64,000 nucleotides of DNA, from positions 303,157 through 367,156 of the forward strand of contig DYGI01000001.1 in the NCBI GenBank assembly GCA_020724805.1, in the 5' to 3' direction. The translations under genes and the position numbers were made by a program. The DNA comes from Candidatus Microgenomatus sp. (GTDB taxonomy: Bacteria > Patescibacteriota > Minisyncoccia > UBA6257 > GWB1-50-10). The first letter of the stretch is position 1; every line of letters begins with the position of its first letter. Below, piece after piece: positions 3,584 through 58,073 of the stretch. The notes under the pieces are model-generated. The model saw only the letters and a list, made by a program, of their open reading frames with translations. It was not told where the DNA came from and ran no database searches.

Positions 3584-5331
3584 TGACGGGGAGCGACATT
3601 CGAAAAAAATTCCTGGATTATTTCAAAGAGAACGGCCACACGGTGGTGCGTTCTTCATCGCTTGTGCCGGACGACCCTTCGGTGCTTTTGACCACTGCGG
3701 GGATGCAGCAGTTCAAGCGGTACTATACCGGGGAGCTTGATGCGATGAAGGATTTCGGCGCGAAGAGCACCGCATCGGTGCAGAAGAGTTTTCGCACTTC
3801 CGACATTGACGAAGTGGGAGATGAGTCGCACCTCACATTCTTTGAAATGCTCGGGAATTTCTCGTTTGGCGGCTATTTCAAGGAAGAGGCAATCAAGTAC
3901 GGATATGAGTTCATCACGAAGGTGATGGGTCTCCCGATAGATTATGTTTCGGTGTTTGATCCCGAGCAGGTACGCGAGGGAGATTGGCGCAAGGGGGTGC
4001 CGCGCGACGACGAATCGCGCGCCATTTGGGAGAAGATTGGTGTGAAGGATATTCGCGCGGAGGGCGTGGATGTCTTTTGGGGTCCTACCGGGAGCGAAGG
4101 CCCGTGTGGCCCTACCACCGAGATTTATGTGAAGAGTGCCGAGGGAAAGAGCTTGGAGGTGTGGAACATCGTGTTCAACGAATTCTATCGTGATCCGGCG
4201 ATGAAACTGACAAAGCTCAAAACGCCGGGAGTAGACACGGGGATGGGACTCGAGCGTCTCGCGATGGTATCGCAGCGGACGCCAACCATCTTCGAGACGG
4301 ATCTGTTTGCGCCGCTCATGAAGCTTTTACCGGGGAATCTTTCCGAGCGTACGCGGCGCATTCTCGCCGACCACGTGCGCGGCATCGCATTCCTTCTTTC
4401 CGATGGGGTACGCCCGTCGAACAAAGAAGCGGGATACGTGCTTCGGCGCTTGATGCGCCGCTTGGTGACCCACCTCCATTTGGCAGGGAACCCCGTGGAC
4501 CCCGCGCATCTTTTTGCCGAGGTGAACGAGCACTACGAAAAATTCTATCCGGAGCTCAATGCCGAGATAATATTGGAGGAATGGAATGCCGAGCGCGCAC
4601 GATTTGAAAAAACGCTTTCGGTGGGACTCCGTGAGCTTTCGAAGATCGATTCGCTGGATGCGAAGGGCGCGTTCATGCTTTTTGAAAGCTGCGGGCTCCC
4701 GTACGAGGTCCTGAAAGAATTGGGCGGTACAAAAGCGTCGAAACTTGCGCGCGAGGAGTTTGATAAAGAGTTCGAAAAGCATCAGGAAATATCTCGCGCC
4801 GGTGCGGTGAAGAAATTCGGTGGTCATGGACTGATTTTGGACACGGGCGAGTTGAAGGCGGGGAGTGAAGAAGAGCTCAAAAAAGTAACGCGGCTCCACA
4901 CCGCAACTCACCTTCTTCAGCGTGCGCTTCGCGAAGTGCTGGGGTCTGAGGTCTCACAGAGAGGGTCCGATATCACACCCGAGCGCACTCGTTTTGACTT
5001 TTCGTTCCCGCGGAAAGTGGAGAAAGAGGAATTGCGACAGGTGGAGGAGTTGGTGAACGAAAAAATAAAAGAGGACCTCCCCGTGCAATTCAAGGAGATG
5101 CCGAAGGAAGAAGCGGAAAAGACCGGCGCGCTCTATTTCTTCAAGGAAAAATACCCCGATCGCGTGAAGGTCTACTTCGTGGGGCGCTCTCTTGAGAACG
5201 CATGGAGCAAAGAATTCTGTGGGGGTCCGCACGTCACCCATACGGGTGAGATCGGACGTGTGAAGATAGCAAAAGAAGAGGCGGTTGGCGCCGGTGTTCG
5301 CCGCATTCGCGCGACACTTGAAGCGGCATAA
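3583..5331 (+). CDS. alaS: Alanyl-tRNA synthetase, short form lacking the C-terminal C-Ala domain
   Basis: N-terminus [14 protein letters not shown]...TAGMQQFK and editing-domain HTATHLLQ motif; only 582 aa against roughly 870 in the typical enzyme. Confidence 0.85.
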   Translation: MTGSDIRKKFLDYFKENGHTVVRSSSLVPDDPSVLLTTAGMQQFKRYYTGELDAMKDFGAKSTASVQKSFRTSDIDEVGDESHLTFFEMLGNFSFGGYFKEEAIKYGYEFITKVMGLPIDYVSVFDPEQVREGDWRKGVPRDDESRAIWEKIGVKDIRAEGVDVFWGPTGSEGPCGPTTEIYVKSAEGKSLEVWNIVFNEFYRDPAMKLTKLKTPGVDTGMGLERLAMVSQRTPTIFETDLFAPLMKLLPGNLSERTRRILADHVRGIAFLLSDGVRPSNKEAGYVLRRLMRRLVTHLHLAGNPVDPAHLFAEVNEHYEKFYPELNAEIILEEWNAERARFEKTLSVGLRELSKIDSLDAKGAFMLFESCGLPYEVLKELGGTKASKLAREEFDKEFEKHQEISRAGAVKKFGGHGLILDTGELKAGSEEELKKVTRLHTATHLLQRALREVLGSEVSQRGSDITPERTRFDFSFPRKVEKEELRQVEELVNEKIKEDLPVQFKEMPKEEAEKTGALYFFKEKYPDRVKVYFVGRSLENAWSKEFCGGPHVTHTGEIGRVKIAKEEAVGAGVRRIRATLEAA

Positions 5332-5338
5332 AGGTATA

Positions 5339-7903: not shown

Positions 7904-8974
7904 ATGATGGTGCGCGCAAATAAAAAGGTATTTGTGGGGATGTCCGGCGGCGTCGATTCTTCCGTCGCGGCGTTGCGGTTGAAGAAAAAAGGATACGACG
8001 TCACGGGCGTTTTCATGCGTTGCTACAACATCGACGGATGCGCGGAGCGCGACGCCGAGGATGCGCGCCGCGTGGCGGAGCACATCGGAATTCCTTTCTA
8101 TGTATTTGATTTCGAGGAGGAATACAAAAAGCGCGTGGTGGCATATATGGTGGAAGGATATCGCGCGGGGCTCACGCCGAACCCGGACGTGATGTGCAAT
8201 CGCGAGATAAAGTTCGGTTTGTTTTTTAAGAAAGCGATGGCGCTTGGTGCGGACTATGTGGCTACCGGTCATTATGCGCGCGTGAAAAAGGTAGGAAGCG
8301 AATACACGCTTTTCGCGGGGAATGACCCGAACAAGGACCAGTCGTACTTTTTATGGACGCTTACACAAAAAGAGCTTGCGCGTACTCTTTTCCCGGTCGG
8401 TGATCTTTTGAAATCAGAGGTGCGTGCGATTGCGAAAAAGGCAGGGCTCCCGACCGCGGAGAAAAAGGATTCGCAGGGAATCTGTTTTTTGGGCGATGTG
8501 TCGCTCATGGATTTCCTCGCGAAATATCTCCCGCACGAACGCGGCGCGGTGTTCAATATTGAGGGAGAAAAGATAGGGGAGCATGAAGGCGCACATTTCT
8601 ACACCATTGGTCAGCGACACATTGGCGTGGCTGTTTCCACCAAAGGCGGCGCGACGAAGCGCCACTATGTGGTGAAAAAGGACGTGGCGACGAATATGGT
8701 GATAGTTGCGGAAGGCGCAGAACACCCTGCGCTCTATCGGGGAAAACTTGTGCTTACAGACATGAATTTCATTCGTCCGGTTGCGCTTTCAAAGCCGCTC
8801 ATGGTCTTTGCGCGTGTTCGCTATCGGCAGCCGCTTTCACCAGCGACGCTTTCGCGCGATGAAAAGCACTACACGCTTACATTCACCGAGCGACAGAAAT
8901 TTGTCGCCCCTGGCCAATCCGCGGTGTTTTACACGGAAAGAGGTGAAATGTTGGGTGGCGGAGTGATTGTATAA
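7904..8974 (+). CDS. mnmA: tRNA-specific 2-thiouridylase
   Basis: PP-loop SGGVDSS and conserved CNREIKF region. Confidence 0.9.
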   Translation: MMVRANKKVFVGMSGGVDSSVAALRLKKKGYDVTGVFMRCYNIDGCAERDAEDARRVAEHIGIPFYVFDFEEEYKKRVVAYMVEGYRAGLTPNPDVMCNREIKFGLFFKKAMALGADYVATGHYARVKKVGSEYTLFAGNDPNKDQSYFLWTLTQKELARTLFPVGDLLKSEVRAIAKKAGLPTAEKKDSQGICFLGDVSLMDFLAKYLPHERGAVFNIEGEKIGEHEGAHFYTIGQRHIGVAVSTKGGATKRHYVVKKDVATNMVIVAEGAEHPALYRGKLVLTDMNFIRPVALSKPLMVFARVRYRQPLSPATLSRDEKHYTLTFTERQKFVAPGQSAVFYTERGEMLGGGVIV

Positions 8975-13588: not shown

Positions 13589-13646
13589 TGTACGTTCGGC
13601 CTGTTGGCCTCAGTACTTCCTCACCTGCGTTTGTCAGTTTGTTTTG

Positions 13647-13717
13647 TCGGGCCGCCGGGAATTGAACCCGGTCTACATGCACCCCATGCATGCGTACTGC
13701 CGGTATACTACGGCCCG
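13647..13717 (-). tRNA. tRNA-Pro (anticodon GGG)
   Basis: Manual cloverleaf fold: acceptor CGGGCCG/CGGCCCG, D-arm GTAT/GTAC, anticodon stem CATGC/GCATG with loop AUGGGGU, T-arm CCGGG-TTCAATT-CCCGG, discriminator A; no encoded CCA. Confidence 0.85.
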
Positions 13718-13758
13718 TGAACGGAGCGAAAATATGCTAAAAGTATATTTTTGCGAAG

Positions 13759-13788
13759 TGAGCGGGACGCATGCGAAGCATACGGCCC
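13759..13788. repeat. 30-nt direct repeat, copy 1 (TGAGCGGGACGCATGCGAAGCATACGGCCC)
   Basis: Identical to 13819..13848; the 30-nt spacer contains the palindrome aatgatt-tacgc-aatcatt. Confidence 0.9.
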
Positions 13789-13818
13789 GAAATGATTTAC
13801 GCAATCATTCTTTCTGAA

Positions 13819-13848
13819 TGAGCGGGACGCATGCGAAGCATACGGCCC
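13819..13848. repeat. 30-nt direct repeat, copy 2
   Basis: Exact copy of 13759..13788. Confidence 0.9.
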
Positions 13849-34809: not shown

Positions 34810-34883
34810 CCCGTTAGAAATCGCGCTCGCGGCAGAGCCGCGAGTCCCTCTGGGACCGCTGGCGCGGCTATTTCTAACGGGAT
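34808..34883. repeat. Palindromic structured leader element, copy B (76 bp; ATCCCGTTAGAAAT...ATTTCTAACGGGAT)
   Basis: Perfect 14-bp inverted termini; internal hairpins ctcgcgg/ccgcgag and gtccc/gggac; it exactly fills the dprA-stop to topA-start gap and overlaps the topA ATG. Confidence 0.85.
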
Positions 34884-45003: not shown

Positions 45004-45079
45004 ACCCCGTTAGAAATCGCGCTCACGACGAAGTCGCGAGTCCTTCAAGGACCGCTGGCGCGGCTATTTCTAACGGGGT
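45004..45079. repeat. Palindromic structured leader element, copy C (76 bp; ACCCCGTTAGAAAT...ATTTCTAACGGGGT)
   Basis: Same architecture as copies A and B, with compensatory substitutions in both internal hairpins; the right terminus overlaps the GTG start of the ECF sigma gene. Confidence 0.85.
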
Positions 45080-52322: not shown

Positions 52323-53222
52323 ATGGTAAATAAGGTTTATTTTGGAGACAACCTTGCGCTGTTAAAATCGTTACCCACGAGATCGGTGCGGCTGATTTAT
52401 ATTGATCCGCCGTTCAACACCGGAAAAGTACAGAAACGGAAACAGCTCAAGACGATCCGCGCGGCCGACGGAGATCGTGTAGGTTTTAAAGGGCAACGTT
52501 ATCAAACGACCGTAGTGGGGGAAAAGGGATACGCTGATGTTTTCGATGACTATCTCGGCTTTCTTGAGCCACGACTCCGAGAAACTCGTCGTGTGCTCAC
52601 CGATGATGGGAGTTTGTATTTTCACATCGATTATCGGGAAGTGCATTATTGTAAGATTCTACTTGATCAGATATTTGGCCGCGAATCGTTTTTGAACGAG
52701 ATCATATGGGCGTATGACTACGGCGCACGCACAAAAAAGAAATGGCCCGCAAAACATGACAATATCTTGTGGTATGCGAAGGATCCGGAACGTTACATCT
52801 TCAACTACGAGGAAATTGAACGAATACCTTACATGGCGCCCGGGCTCGTGGGTCCCGAGAAAGCTAAACGGGGGAAAACGCCTACCGATACGTGGTGGAA
52901 CACCATCGTGAGTCCGAACGGAAAGGAAAAAACCGGATACCCTACACAGAAACCGCTCAGTATTATACGACGCATTGTTCTAGCGTCGTCGAATCCCGGC
53001 GATATGGTGATGGACTTTTTTGCTGGAAGCGGAACTCTTGGCGAGGCCGCGCTTGAACTCGGAAGAAATTTTATTTTAGCAGACAGCAATCCCGAAGCGA
53101 TCGAAGTAATGAAGAAACGATTACTCAAGTATCCTAATGTGGCATTTGAAACGTTAGAGAAAGATGCAGATGCCCAACCTTTGAAGCTTGTTTCGGAACA
53201 AAAAGTTCACACTTTACTGTGA
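52323..53222 (+). CDS. Site-specific DNA methyltransferase (N6-adenine/N4-cytosine class)
   Basis: Catalytic DPPF (IYIDPPFNTG) and an AdoMet-binding motif; lower GC than the flanking DNA. Confidence 0.85.
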   Translation: MVNKVYFGDNLALLKSLPTRSVRLIYIDPPFNTGKVQKRKQLKTIRAADGDRVGFKGQRYQTTVVGEKGYADVFDDYLGFLEPRLRETRRVLTDDGSLYFHIDYREVHYCKILLDQIFGRESFLNEIIWAYDYGARTKKKWPAKHDNILWYAKDPERYIFNYEEIERIPYMAPGLVGPEKAKRGKTPTDTWWNTIVSPNGKEKTGYPTQKPLSIIRRIVLASSNPGDMVMDFFAGSGTLGEAALELGRNFILADSNPEAIEVMKKRLLKYPNVAFETLEKDADAQPLKLVSEQKVHTLL

Positions 53223-53755
53223 AGCGTAAGGTTACCAATCACGATGTTGGAATGCTTGCGAGCATCGCGCAGAGCCTCCGCGCTGACTATGTGAGCAATG
53301 ATGCGGCATGGGAAGGCAGCCCATTTGCATGGATTAGAACGCGTCCATCACGTCAGAAAGGCAAGATTGGGGAACAGCTCGTTGCCGGATGGTGCGCAGC
53401 AAAAAGTTTGAACGTGGAACGAAGCCCTGATAGTGACGCAGATCGTGTTATTGAGGGGAAAAGAGTTGAGATAAAACTTTCAACGCTTTGGGAAAGTGGA
53501 ATTTATAAATTTCAACAGCTCCGTGATCAGAATTATGAATACCTTATTTGTCTCGGTATCTCTCCTTTTGATGCGCGCGCCTGGGTTTTCAAGAAGAGCG
53601 AAATACCATTTGATCGCTTAGACCATCAACATGGAGGATCACGCGGAAGAGATACTTGGTGGATAGAAGCAGATCCAAATCGCCCTCCAAGGTGGATGAT
53701 GCGTGATCAGCGCGGGAAATTATCCGATGTGTATCGAATTTTGAAAAGCAGATAG
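53219..53755 (+). CDS. Putative type II restriction endonuclease (PD-(D/E)xK fold), translationally coupled to the MTase
   Basis: 4-nt overlap with the MTase gene; motif SDADRVIEGKRVEIK (D...E-x-K). Confidence 0.5.
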   Translation: MKRKVTNHDVGMLASIAQSLRADYVSNDAAWEGSPFAWIRTRPSRQKGKIGEQLVAGWCAAKSLNVERSPDSDADRVIEGKRVEIKLSTLWESGIYKFQQLRDQNYEYLICLGISPFDARAWVFKKSEIPFDRLDHQHGGSRGRDTWWIEADPNRPPRWMMRDQRGKLSDVYRILKSR

Positions 53756-54631: not shown

Positions 54632-54991
54632 ATGGCCTGGCACCATTATTTTAAAAAGTTTTACAGAAAGAAGATTGGTCAGACGCCTCACTCCCGACGC
54701 CTATGGGCCGCTCTTAAAGAGCGTGGAATAGATTCCGAAACCGAGTATTTCGATGGTCACAAGCATGTTGATATCGCCATTCGTAGTGCTCGTATCTATA
54801 TTGAGGTAGATGGTATCCAGCATTTTACTAACCCAGAGCAAATCATGAGAGATTTCAAGCGGAGCCATTATTCTGATGGTGACGACTTTAGCACTTTCTA
54901 CGTAACCAACCAGATCATTGAAACGCACTTGAACGAAGTTGCAGACGCTATCGCTAAAGTTGTGGAAATGAAACTTAACCCCTCCCCATGA
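54632..54991 (+). CDS. DUF559-family (Vsr/MutH-like endonuclease fold) protein
   Basis: HVDIAIRSARIYIEVDGIQHFTNPEQIMRD...GDDFSTFYVTNQI matches the DUF559 pattern (VDF...IELDGxQH...PEQ...D). Confidence 0.6.
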   Translation: MAWHHYFKKFYRKKIGQTPHSRRLWAALKERGIDSETEYFDGHKHVDIAIRSARIYIEVDGIQHFTNPEQIMRDFKRSHYSDGDDFSTFYVTNQIIETHLNEVADAIAKVVEMKLNPSP

Positions 54992-55033
54992 CCCTCCAAA
55001 ATCTTTCATTACTCGTAATGGCCATCGCGGTGG
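54983..55033. repeat. 51-nt perfect direct repeat, copy 1 (covers the start of the gene at 54988)
   Basis: TCCCCATGACCCTCCAAAATCTTTCATTACTCGTAATGGCCATCGCGGTGG, identical to 56821..56871. Confidence 0.95.
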
Positions 55034-55740
55034 CGATATTGATTTTCGCGGCCGTGGGGCTCTACCCCGGGAGCTTTATGGTGCTACGGATAGTGACTTT
55101 CCTCGCGGCCGCGGCGTTTGCAAACCTTGCGTACCGGAGCAAGCAAATCCCGTGGCTATGCGTATTTGTGGCAATAGCGGTGGTGTTTAACCCGTTTATT
55201 CCTTTTGCCCTGAACGACGCGACCCTATGGCGCGTGATAGACGCGGCGGTGGTGCTCATTTTCGGATTTTTCTTCTGGCGCTACTACGACCGGTACGGCA
55301 AGGGGCATCGGTTCGAGGAATATGTGGCCGCGCTTTTTCCCGCGCACCACTGGGTGGTGGTGGACCGGACGCGGGATTTTTCAAAAACACTCGGGCGGTT
55401 TGTGGAGTCGGACACCAATCCCGACTTTATGTTTCGCGACGTGAAGACCGGAAAATCGTTTGCGGTGGAGTGCAAGTTCAGATCGTATCTCTACAAAGGC
55501 GGCATTTCGTGGGATAGGCAGAGAGGGGAACGGTACCATGCGTATGGCGTGAAGCACAGCGTGCCGGTGTTCATCGCAATCGGGCTTGGTGGGAGCCCCA
55601 AGAAGCCCGAGCGGCTGTTTATGTGCCCTTTGGAAAAACTGAACAACTTTGCGAACCCCGTGGTGCCGATGGAGGAGTTTGTCCGCTACGAGCGCGACCC
55701 GAAAAGGCAGTTCGTTTCGATTGAGGAGATTATAGGATAG
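54988..55740 (+). CDS. Membrane-anchored PD-(D/E)xK nuclease-fold protein (3-4 TM helices plus a C-terminal nuclease-like domain)
   Basis: C-terminal NPDFMFRDVKTGKSFAVECKFRS (PD...ExK); paralogous to the gene at 56342. Confidence 0.55.
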   Translation: MTLQNLSLLVMAIAVAILIFAAVGLYPGSFMVLRIVTFLAAAAFANLAYRSKQIPWLCVFVAIAVVFNPFIPFALNDATLWRVIDAAVVLIFGFFFWRYYDRYGKGHRFEEYVAALFPAHHWVVVDRTRDFSKTLGRFVESDTNPDFMFRDVKTGKSFAVECKFRSYLYKGGISWDRQRGERYHAYGVKHSVPVFIAIGLGGSPKKPERLFMCPLEKLNNFANPVVPMEEFVRYERDPKRQFVSIEEIIG

Positions 55741-55779
55741 CTTCCCACTGACCTACCCCAATTGGGGTAGAATGGAGAT

Positions 55780-56313
55780 ATGAAAATAGCGGTAGGGACC
55801 GTTTCGGAACAAAAAATAGGATATCTACGTGAAATTCTCGCAGAGGTCGGCGTTTCCGCTGAAACTTTTCCAGTTGGTGTATCAAGCGAAATAGCGGAAC
55901 AGCCGTTCACCTCGGATGAGGTAAAGCGGGGTTCGTTGAATCGAGCCCGCCACGCACTGGAAAAAGTTCCCGATGCCGACATATCAATTGGCATCGAGGT
56001 GGGATATGAAAAGGATAAAAACGGGAGTTTTTGGATGTTTTGTTGGGGGACAGCGATCGATAAGGCGGGATTCATAATTTCACACAAATCAAATGAGTTT
56101 CTCCTCCCCGCGTTTTTTCAAAGCGTCCTTCAAGATGGACGATACGTTTCTGATTCTGTGGCTGAATATAAGAGGCAGCAGTCAGACACCGCGGGGCATG
56201 TAATCGCGGACATCGTAACTTACCGCAAGCCCTTCATTGTGGACGCGGTACGAAACGTATTGCTTCGCTACGTAAAGCGTGAGGAATTTGAAAGAAAGCA
56301 TCCTTTCCTATGA
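55780..56313 (+). CDS. YjjX-family non-canonical purine NTP phosphatase (inosine/xanthosine triphosphatase, Maf/Ham1 superfamily)
   Basis: SEIAEQPFTSDEVKRGSLNRARHAL...ISIGIEVG aligns with E. coli YjjX ([26 protein letters not shown]...FWVAIEAG). Confidence 0.75.
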   Translation: MKIAVGTVSEQKIGYLREILAEVGVSAETFPVGVSSEIAEQPFTSDEVKRGSLNRARHALEKVPDADISIGIEVGYEKDKNGSFWMFCWGTAIDKAGFIISHKSNEFLLPAFFQSVLQDGRYVSDSVAEYKRQQSDTAGHVIADIVTYRKPFIVDAVRNVLLRYVKREEFERKHPFL

Positions 56314-56341
56314 GCTCAGCAAATTAGGGTAGAATAGAGGT

Positions 56342-56818
56342 ATGAAAAACCCCATCGACTTCTCGCGAGGGCTTATAAAAGGAAAAATTGCGGAGGTTAT
56401 TTTCGAGCAAATGTTCCGCGAGTCGGGCGAGTTTACTATTCTCCATTTTGGATACGAATATACATCGCAAGAATTGGCCCAATATCGGAAAACCCTTAAA
56501 AAAGAGGTTGTGGAAGATATAAGTAACGCACCTGACTTCGCACTTATTTCACAATCGAAGAAAGAATTGTATTTAGTTGAAGTGAAGTATCGCTCGCAGT
56601 ACAACAGGGATGATTTGAAAGAAATTGCCAGAACTCAACTTAAGCGATGGGACCCATCATGGCTTTTTGTGGCATCTCCAAAAGGATTTTTCTTTTCGCC
56701 TTGTAGCTCAATTGTAAAAAGTGGGGGAGAAATGGAACCTTTGCGCGACACGTGGGTAAATAAAGAATCGCAAAAGGAGTATCTGAAACTACTGAACGAG
56801 TTCATAAAACAGAAATAA
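56342..56818 (+). CDS. Soluble PD-(D/E)xK nuclease-fold protein
   Basis: APDFALISQSKKELYLVEVKYRS (PD...EVK); paralogous to the C-terminal domain of the gene at 54988. Confidence 0.55.
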   Translation: MKNPIDFSRGLIKGKIAEVIFEQMFRESGEFTILHFGYEYTSQELAQYRKTLKKEVVEDISNAPDFALISQSKKELYLVEVKYRSQYNRDDLKEIARTQLKRWDPSWLFVASPKGFFFSPCSSIVKSGGEMEPLRDTWVNKESQKEYLKLLNEFIKQK

Positions 56819-56820
56819 AC

Positions 56821-56871
56821 TCCCCATGACCCTCCAAAATCTTTCATTACTCGTAATGGCCATCGCGGTGG
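56821..56871. repeat. 51-nt perfect direct repeat, copy 2 (encodes a truncated 26-aa duplicate of the N-terminus of the gene at 54988)
   Basis: Exact copy of 54983..55033; the ORF ATGACCCTCC... terminates after 26 codons at 56906. Confidence 0.95.
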
Positions 56872-56892
56872 AAAAGAAACGGCCATCAGTTT

Positions 56893-57147
56893 CTATTGAA
56901 TTCTGATGGCCGCGAGAATGAAGATAATGAGAACGATGAGGGCGACGCCGAAGGGGATAGGATTCTGTGCGATGAAGTGACCAAGCGAGCGGCCCATCCA
57001 TCGTACAAATGTGGCGAGTTGTCGCCCCGTCCACCCTCGGAAGCGATTCGCCTGCGCGGGGCTCACCATATAGATAATCGCGTAGCACGTGAGCCACATC
57101 CCCGTGAGCAGCGCTACCCACTGCATGGAATATTCGAAAAGAGTCAT
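56893..57147 (-). CDS. Hypothetical small membrane protein (84 aa, two TM helices)
   Basis: Divergent from the gene at 57318; a palindromic operator-like site lies between them. Confidence 0.4.
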   Translation of the reverse strand: MTLFEYSMQWVALLTGMWLTCYAIIYMVSPAQANRFRGWTGRQLATFVRWMGRSLGHFIAQNPIPFGVALIVLIIFILAAIRIQ

Positions 57148-57214
57148 AAGGTCCTCTTTTTGGTTTTGAAAGATCGGCGACGCACAACCTATCGTGAATT
57201 GTGTGGATGCATTA

Positions 57215-57231
57215 TAGCATATTATATGCTA
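57215..57231. promoter_or_regulatory. Perfect 17-bp palindrome TAGCATATTATATGCTA in a divergent intergenic region
   Basis: Arms tagcatat/atatgcta; located between the minus-strand gene at 56893..57147 and the plus-strand gene at 57318. Confidence 0.45.
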
Positions 57232-57317
57232 ATATGTCAATATGTGTATATTTAGCGTGGTATCAGTTCTCAGTCAATGCACTTCCAATGTTTGTGGGAT
57301 AAAATGGAGGTGTGAGC

Positions 57318-58073
57318 ATGGAAATGTCCAACACGATGGAGCTTAGACCAGAGAAGGAATCGCTCGGTCCGGAATTCCTCGCCGAGCAGGCCCGGCTTCC
57401 GCGCGAGGAATGGGACGAGCGTTTTCGTATACTCGTCGCGAAGAAGAGCGAGGAAAATCAAAAGGTGATTGCGGAGGGGGTGGAAGAAGGTCCGGAGTCG
57501 CCGGAGGAGCGCGTGTTCCGCCGCTATTGCGACGGGCTTGGGCTCGACGAAGAATCGCTCCACGGAAAGCGCATCGTGGACTTTGGGTGCGGCGAGGAAG
57601 GGGAATTCGTAAAATATTGCATTGAGCACGGAATCACCACGGAAGTCTACGGTGTGGACGCGCAGGTGGACGAGTCTTTGGTGGAAGAGAAATTCAAAAA
57701 ACACCTCGTGAAAGGATATTTTGAAGATGAAGCGCCGGTACGCGATGCGGATTACGTGATTTCCGTGGGGGCGGTATCAAATGAGATATGGGGAGGCGAA
57801 ACGCAGGGGGATATTGAGAAAATACTCGCGCGTGCCGTGGACGCACTGAAAGACGGCGGAGAGATAAGAATGTACCCGATACAGGAAGCCGCCCGCGCGA
57901 CCCCGCTGGAAGGGCTTGCGGCATCACGGGAAAGATGGAAAGAGATACTGGACGCATTTGCCGCGGACCACGGCGTGGAATATCGGCTGGAACCGCGCGA
58001 TATCAAAGTGGCAGGAAACGACAACGACATCATCCTTGAATCGGTGCTTGTGATGAAAAGGAAACATAAATAG
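57318..58073 (+). CDS. Class I SAM-dependent methyltransferase-like protein
   Basis: Motif I IVDFGCGEEG; post-I acidic VYGVD; DYVIS. ATG 57318 is preferred because RBS ggagg sits 7 nt upstream. Confidence 0.55.
   Translation: MEMSNTMELRPEKESLGPEFLAEQARLPREEWDERFRILVAKKSEENQKVIAEGVEEGPESPEERVFRRYCDGLGLDEESLHGKRIVDFGCGEEGEFVKYCIEHGITTEVYGVDAQVDESLVEEKFKKHLVKGYFEDEAPVRDADYVISVGAVSNEIWGGETQGDIEKILARAVDALKDGGEIRMYPIQEAARATPLEGLAASRERWKEILDAFAADHGVEYRLEPRDIKVAGNDNDIILESVLVMKRKHK

Follow-up and report, generated by a model that had tools for sequence, protein, structure and literature searches.

Between two copies of a perfect 52-nt direct repeat in the stretch analyzed here, a 64-kb piece of contig DYGI01000001.1 that we call the window, lie three genes that had been proposed to work together. 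An earlier note on this DNA read them, a membrane-anchored nuclease (gene 1), a nucleoside triphosphate (NTP) pyrophosphatase (gene 2) and a small soluble nuclease (gene 3), as a cassette encoding a possible new system. Our analysis leads elsewhere. The interval is probably no dedicated system but one mosaic part of a region that is hypervariable in this Candidatus Jorgensenbacteria-like (Patescibacteria) genome; its three genes are likely to have been acquired independently and to be expressed independently; and the repeat is best explained as a recombination scar in a mosaic variable region beside a type II restriction-modification pair. The host region holds that pair together with traces of mobile elements.

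Co-occurrence in other genomes had been set beforehand as the test by which the three-gene cassette would stand or fall, and it fails. A scan for gene 3 homologs, done with one genome per species, returned 80 loci, and in none of these genomes did tblastn find a relative of gene 1 or gene 2 within 6 kb of the homolog (0/80). Nor is there a gene 2 or a separate gene 3 nearby in any of the 55 loci with a gene 1 relative, three of which came from exact look-ups and 52 from metagenomes. The relatives of gene 2, for which we recovered two distinct neighborhoods (four loci), have no partner nuclease genes close by and sit in housekeeping-type contexts, with CYTH/RuvC in one and a metalloprotease in the other. 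The same picture is seen among the closest homologs. The three nearest to gene 1 (79-86% identity) are followed by unrelated genes and preceded, respectively, by a type I restriction-modification system, by GmrSD with HEPN and a restriction-modification pair, and by an SLFN-like helicase with DUF3800, and neighbors differ again around close homologs of gene 3 (94%, 77% and 69% identity). Judged from these neighborhoods, the trio is specific to this strain.

Within the window, signals around the genes tell a similar story. Gene 1 lacks the -10-like box that precedes genes 2 and 3 (Table 1), and its start overlaps the stop codon of the upstream DUF559 gene as ATGA, to which it appears to be translationally coupled; genes 2 and 3 have boxes of their own, and the trio therefore has the appearance of three expression units. 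Genes 2 and 3 do share the near-identical start region of 23 nt that the earlier note had pointed out, but it is a common motif of the genome, and a start region specific to the cassette can be rejected: GGTA(G/T/A)AAT-N6-ATG occurs before open reading frame (ORF) starts at eight sites in the window, the six others being at 5333, 18746, 29766, 60688, 62457 and 62905 (with N7 instead of N6 at one). As far as this distribution indicates, the box is the genome's common -10-like, near-leaderless start. Composition is equally uneven, since the G+C content at third codon positions (GC3) is 71% in gene 1, 47% in gene 2 and 43% in gene 3, against a window average of 55%, a contrast that points to three different origins. 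The palindrome CTACCCCAATTGGGGTAG between genes 1 and 2 folds into a 7-bp hairpin (-14.4 kcal/mol and z -2.2 over a 48-nt stretch), and its possible roles include those of terminator and operator. Similarity upstream of genes 2 and 3 reaches beyond the shared box, with 76% identity over 46 nt (55741-55786 and 56303-56348); the 18-nt palindrome (55753-55770) lies in the first of these regions and recurs in degenerate form in the second, and the two could represent a duplicated promoter/operator segment.

There is one known precedent for an NTP-pyrophosphatase-like protein within a defense effector, the Kongming system, in which KomB, a HAM1-like pyrophosphatase, binds deoxyinosine triphosphate (dITP) and activates the SIR2 protein KomC, KomA being an adenosine deaminase (PMC13454610). 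By this precedent of a nucleotide sensor, the trio could be a nucleotide-surveillance/nuclease-effector module, in which, for example, the inosine triphosphatase (ITPase)-like protein would sense or remove a modified purine nucleotide and control two PD-(D/E)xK nucleases, one of them membrane-bound. The restriction-modification pair alongside, the occurrence of close gene 1 relatives among defense genes and the retention of all catalytic-type residues are compatible with such a module, which we nevertheless consider very improbable. More than 135 other loci contain neither the trio nor any pair drawn from it; the genes have separate expression signals, gene 1 being coupled upstream instead; and composition suggests three sources. 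Moreover, gene 2 is a DUF84 (PF01931) protein whereas KomB is HAM1-like, Pfam scans of the neighboring genes revealed no deaminase or SIR2 domain and thus nothing of the Kongming partnership, and the neighborhood of gene 2 is not conserved. The Kongming analogy therefore gives no support. PADLOC found no match for genes 1 and 2, and its sole hit for gene 3 was a generic restriction enzyme of type II at E = 0.01, in agreement with the earlier statement that the trio corresponds to no described defense system.

The repeat itself is real. It had been reported as a perfect 51-nt direct repeat at 54983 and 56821, and it is indeed perfect, but the copies begin 1 nt earlier and measure 52 nt. They are spaced 1838 nt apart. 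Copy 1 also includes the final 10 nt of the upstream DUF559 ORF, while copy 2 begins 1 nt past the gene 3 stop and, as had been noted, encodes a 26-aa truncated duplicate of the gene 1 N terminus; the 26-codon stub ORF that it opens is most likely not a gene. No third copy is present in the window at up to three mismatches, and none arose in 100 shuffles. An assembly artefact had been named from the start as a concern. In favor of a chimeric or collapsed join at a repeat of k-mer size, 52 nt is near common k-mer sizes and every assembly comes from the same or closely related samples. However, four assemblies made with different pipelines agree. A 570-kb contig from the Joint Genome Institute (JGI) is identical to the window, and the third-party assembly GCA_020725245.1 at NCBI differs from it by one single-nucleotide polymorphism and one 14-nt insertion/deletion. 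In a second JGI sample, two contigs cross each repeat copy into unique flanks and break elsewhere, within gene 2, at 56028. All four show the orders DUF559-repeat-gene 1 and gene 3-repeat-downstream, in a linear arrangement only. A 1846-nt Logan contig built with k = 31 matches the unit exactly: it is cut off at each of the two copies, where the overlaps measure 30 nt, as expected of a genuine 52-nt repeat in two copies. Finally, the junction of gene 3 with the gene 1 5' end was seen independently in a related strain from another data set. At the assembly level, an artefact is therefore extremely improbable.

This related strain also suggests how the repeat arose. The Logan contig concerned (L017) carries a gene 3 that is 94% identical as protein and 86.6% as DNA, with flanking genes 90-94% identical as DNA. 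Immediately past the gene 3 stop come the letters TAA-CCCCTCCCCATGACCC, after which the sequence departs from that of the window until homology picks up again at a methyltransferase-like gene (window 57312-58073). The 16 nt of CCCCTCCCCATGACCC equal the native 5' flank of gene 1 together with its first 7 coding nt. This flank also stands before gene 1 in the window (TTAACCCCTCCCCATGA) and, in a slightly shorter form, in the 79%-identical relative L008. The junction between gene 3 and the gene 1 5' end is thus present in two lineages, with right-hand break points at +7 in L017 and +46 in the window. The repeat had been taken to indicate a recent event; since the junction is partly shared with a strain about 6% diverged in flanking genes, this does not hold, and by this comparison the junction is not recent.

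If the 1838-bp unit had been duplicated in tandem by way of TAA, exactly the L017 join would be expected, which is why we favor tandem duplication followed by deletion. In this most economical history, the unit would first have been duplicated in tandem, joined at the TAA microhomology that precedes both copies, and the second unit would then have been deleted except for its first 52 nt, leaving a dead gene 1 5' fragment after gene 3. Alternatively, short-patch gene conversion could have been seeded by an older shared match of 13-16 nt. The two copies might recombine homologously, whereby the 1.84-kb unit would be deleted as a circle or amplified and the three genes lost or multiplied together. 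The repeat would have no designed role, and this proneness of 1.84 kb to deletion and amplification is the sole effect to be expected of it.

Such a scar would resemble other partial-duplication scars of variable islands, with which it shares a gene fragment that repeats an intact gene, strain-variable content, mosaic G+C and restriction-modification neighbors; the only slightly unusual point is that 52 of 52 positions are identical although the junction is partly shared. This is the first of several observations that weigh against our interpretation. The absence of any difference in 52 nt is somewhat surprising if the junction predates a DNA divergence of 6-13% (rough probability 0.03-0.2), so that gene conversion or a more recent extension must be invoked. 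Copy 2 is preceded by TAA-A-CTCCCC and not by the predicted TAA-CCC-CTCCCC, for which a small secondary change has to be assumed. L017 is cut off upstream of gene 3, and the ancestral order cannot be read from it. As for the genes, lack of co-occurrence elsewhere is no proof against an interaction of the three proteins in this strain.

Repeats of a comparable kind are common in related loci. Direct repeats of at least 22 nt straddle gene 1 homologs in 5 of 55 loci, with 3.35 expected from random placement, and gene 3 homologs in 7 of 91 loci, with 6.18 expected; enrichment was rejected on these counts, and several of the repeats proved on inspection to be hairpin terminators or other partial gene duplicates. 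In one Doudnabacteria locus (L080), a 39-nt direct repeat of 95% identity (3647-3685 and 4703-4741, spacing 1056 nt) brackets the gene 3 homolog alone. Its resemblance to the window is superficial, such repeats occurring across the loci at the rate expected by chance.

A different account would make the gene 1 5' end a preferred point of recombination or insertion for variable, often defense, genes, with copy 2 as a by-product of one such event, so that the repeat would mark a hot spot and not a chance scar. Unrelated genes stand directly against gene 1, their junctions 0-14 nt from its ATG, both in the window and in the three closest relatives, two distinct genes on the upstream side run through the same flank into an ATGA overlap, and gene 1 start fragments with break points at +7 nt (L017) and +46 nt (window) follow gene 3 in two strains. 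A similar short string is also found after several stop codons, solely between 53.8 and 58.1 kb. Set against this, comparison with shuffles shows no enrichment of the short motif in the window, no recombinase is nearby, and neighbors vary on both sides of gene 1, which may be just another accessory gene. A second copy of the 5' probe is present in 3 of 50 gene 1 loci, none of them a systematic duplication of the 5' fragment. We regard such a hot spot as rather unlikely. The two candidates that it brings with it were tried separately. Systematic 5'-fragment duplication was rejected, since the three second copies are two stop-AATTT-start junctions and one unrelated, imperfect repeat of about 60 nt. 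For the CTCCCCATGACCC-like junction motif, a role in recombination is unproven: of 78 ORF stops, 4 have it behind them, all at 53.8-58.1 kb, and three shuffle comparisons gave no enrichment. C-rich strings of a similar kind stand after stop codons at window 54213, 55738, 56816 and 58071 (also 54976), in the forms TAGCTTCCCA (twice), TAGCTCCTCCCACTGACC and TAA(A)CTCCCCATGACC.

It could also be asked whether the 1838-bp unit is an excisable or mobile cassette, its repeats acting like attachment sites (attL/attR) or as a substrate for RecA-mediated excision, so that the three genes are switched within the population. The unit has perfect direct repeats precisely at its two ends, in a circle gene 1 would again be intact and lie downstream of gene 3, and 52 nt is probably a sufficient length for homologous recombination. 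In addition, gene 3 relatives elsewhere are linked to integrative elements: in 20 of 80 loci a large serine recombinase lies no more than 6 kb away, and 12 of these also have a rolling-circle Rep. The geometry, too, is like that of the attachment sites of integrative elements, whose direct repeats hold the 5' end of a gene and leave a single copy upon excision. Yet here no integrase or recombinase lies within the unit or within 10 kb of it, and the intact gene 1 is inside the bounded unit with the stub outside, the stub decaying in the relative. Pfam annotations of genes up to 10 kb from the unit include no recombinase or transposase, and tblastn with serine recombinase and Rep queries found none in the window, so that the excisable cassette that had been suggested is not upheld in the site-specific sense. 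The four assemblies are linear only, without a contig break at the repeat when k exceeds 52, and GC3 is heterogeneous inside the unit. Only 16 nt of the junction are left in the diverged strain, which argues for a site that is decaying rather than maintained. An exact 23-mer scan of JGI metagenome contigs for the gene 1 start and for alternative junctions gave 0 matches in a collection evidently lacking the source samples. Excision as a function of the unit is, in our view, quite improbable.

Gene 1 had been described as a membrane protein with a C-terminal PD...ExK nuclease motif, and both parts are confirmed. Its N-terminal region reaches the DUF6804 (PF20619) gathering score (47 bits, cut-off 27), as do all 16 members of its family (16/16 with a DUF6804 match), and comprises four predicted membrane helices. 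Its C-terminal domain is of the Hjc/RecU-like PD-(D/E)xK type, with motifs NPDF...AVECK, and residues E110, D146, E161 and K163 are invariant across the 16 relatives; from the predicted topology, this domain probably faces the cytoplasm. A literature search gave no paper on DUF6804. In one locus (L104), a 103-aa stand-alone DUF6804 protein (621-932) without a nuclease domain is encoded 3.4 kb upstream of a 69%-identical gene 3 homolog, with an NmeDI-like restriction enzyme and a Ymh-family gene in between; the membrane and nuclease modules therefore occur separately too.

Both the C-terminal domain of gene 1 and gene 3 display a restriction-endonuclease-like alpha/beta core fold and the E...(P)D...(D/E)xK residue pattern. 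Neither protein reaches a Pfam or NCBIfam cut-off for a curated family (NERD, Mrr_cat, Hjc, TnsA_N, VRR_NUC, YraN or PDDEXK_n), the best score being that of gene 3 to TnsA-like_N (19.6 bits, cut-off 26.5), and sequence searches of the PDB with both family profiles found nothing below E = 0.8. Structurally, the closest proteins to both are Hjc/RecU-type Holliday-junction resolvases and related small restriction-endonuclease-fold proteins, but the four-helix DUF6804 anchor of gene 1 is missing from all matched nuclease structures, and neither gene 1 nor gene 3 has a known resolvase context or activity. Calling gene 3 a paralog of the gene 1 nuclease domain was too strong, a generic superfamily motif being all that they have in common. 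Close paralogy was rejected, with a BLASTP E value of 0.01 over 38 residues and an hhalign probability of 34% over 29 columns. By these alignments, the relationship between the two nuclease families does not go beyond the superfamily.

Gene 2 is a DUF84/NTPase_I-T protein, as the profile searches show (PF01931, 65.9 bits, gathering score 25). It had been assigned more narrowly, as a clear YjjX-family inosine/xanthosine triphosphatase; the DUF84 family stands, but the protein falls far short of the NCBIfam equivalog cut-offs for both TIGR00258 (49.4 bits, cut-off 117.1) and PRK05074, that is, YjjX (44 bits, cut-off 175). In the subfamily alignment, gene 2 keeps all 19 subfamily-invariant residues. 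Its nearest relatives among the proteins found are at most 52% identical.

Gene 3 is, as proposed, a soluble protein with a PD-(D/E)xK motif (APDF...VEVK), and residues E18, E22, D65, E80 and K82 are invariant in 23 relatives. The family is compact, highly conserved and restricted to Patescibacteria, its 80 loci spanning Paceibacteria, Wolfe-, Gottesman-, Doudna-, Uhr-, Nomura- and Campbellbacteria among others, and no match was found in viral contigs, phage records or plasmid records. A large serine recombinase (Resolvase + Recombinase + Zn_ribbon_recom) is encoded within 6 kb of the gene 3 homolog in 20 of the 80 species, alongside a rolling-circle Rep (PF23343) in 12 of those 20 loci. The recurrent order is serine recombinase(-), Rep(-), 0-2 unknown genes and gene 3(+), starting about 1-5 kb upstream of the homolog at ~6000 (L024, L040, L046, L047, L048, L053, L066, L074, L081, L091 and L093), and in L047 the recombinase-Rep-gene 3 block is bounded by a 41-nt direct repeat (2350-2390 and 8590-8630). 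This arrangement may be a Patescibacteria integrative element that carries or targets gene 3; a literature search on mobile elements of Patescibacteria gave nothing relevant.

Table 1. Features of the interval and its immediate surroundings, in window coordinates
Feature	Position	Strand	Remarks
Type II restriction-modification pair, N4/N6 methyltransferase and restriction enzyme	52323..53755	+	
DUF559 gene (Vsr-like endonuclease fold), final gene of low-GC block	54632..54991	+	stop overlaps gene 1 start
Repeat copy 1 (52 nt)	54982..55033	+	gene 1 native 5' flank CTCCCC (6 nt) and first 46 coding nt
Gene 1, 250 aa	54988..55740	+	N-terminal DUF6804, C-terminal PD-(D/E)xK
18-nt perfect palindrome CTACCCCAATTGGGGTAG	55753..55770	+	just past gene 1 stop, overlaps gene 2 -10-like box
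-10-like box GGTAGAAT	55766..55773	+	6 nt before gene 2 ATG
Gene 2, 177 aa, DUF84/NTPase_I-T family NTP pyrophosphatase	55780..56313	+	
-10-like box GGTAGAAT	56328..56335	+	6 nt before gene 3 ATG
Gene 3, 158 aa, stand-alone PD-(D/E)xK-fold protein	56342..56818	+	motif APDF...VEVK
Repeat copy 2 (52 nt), truncated gene 1 5' fragment	56820..56871	+	between gene 3 stop and hairpin 56880-56912
26-codon stub ORF opened by copy 2, MTLQNLSLLVMAIAVEKKRPSVSIEF*	56826..56906	+	
Strong hairpin, bidirectional terminator candidate	56880..56912	.	-20.9 kcal/mol, z -3.6

The surroundings are low in G+C and adjoin the type II restriction-modification pair (52323-53755), both as first reported. Past copy 2, the hairpin at 56880-56912 sits between gene 3 and a convergent 84-aa gene on the minus strand, and by its fold and position is likely a bidirectional terminator. 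The 84-aa gene (56893-57147(-)) encodes a membrane protein and is missing from L017, which identifies it as an insertion in its own right; upstream of it is a perfect sigma-70 consensus promoter (TTGACA, 18-nt spacer, TG, TATAAT) at 57211-57240 on the minus strand. The methyltransferase gene at its 3' end (53190-53204) and gene 2 in its 5' part (55801-55815) have 15 nt in common without a mismatch, GTTTCGGAACAAAAA, against a roughly estimated chance expectation of ~0.02 in 6 kb.

Farther away in the window, Rfam identified three tRNAs and nothing else. The tRNA-Pro gene (13646-13717) is adjoined by a 42-nt near-tandem repeat (13747-13788 and 13807-13848, 88% identity). A 72-nt element occurs in two copies of 89% identity (34810-34881 and 45006-45077) and is framed by terminal inverted repeats, CCCGTTAGAAAT...ATTTCTAACGGG. 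Folds of high stability are predicted for both copies (-45.9 and -41.9 kcal/mol; z -6.0 and -4.8), and compensatory changes separate the two copies in one inner hairpin. The element has no Rfam match; it may represent either a structured small RNA or a mobile element of miniature size.

Had the three genes formed a system, they would represent a new defense architecture, one in which nucleases are combined with a house-cleaning NTPase; comparison with other genomes says otherwise. A narrower proposal links two claims: that the gene 1 family is a stand-alone, membrane-tethered defense or DNA-processing nuclease of Patescibacteria whose 5' flank is a recurrent swap point for defense genes, and that the 52-nt repeat is kept by gene conversion and mediates loss and gain of the 1.84 kb at the population level. 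We think it doubtful. Much of what remains is ordinary: in a mosaic region of this uncultivated bacterium, a scar of partial duplication and three accessory genes without relation to one another. Of possible, if modest, use to specialists are the two nuclease families: that of gene 1, uncharacterized and restricted to Patescibacteria, in which a DUF6804 membrane anchor is fused to an Hjc/RecU-like nuclease domain, and that of gene 3, whose link to a serine recombinase and a rolling-circle Rep may mark an integrative element.

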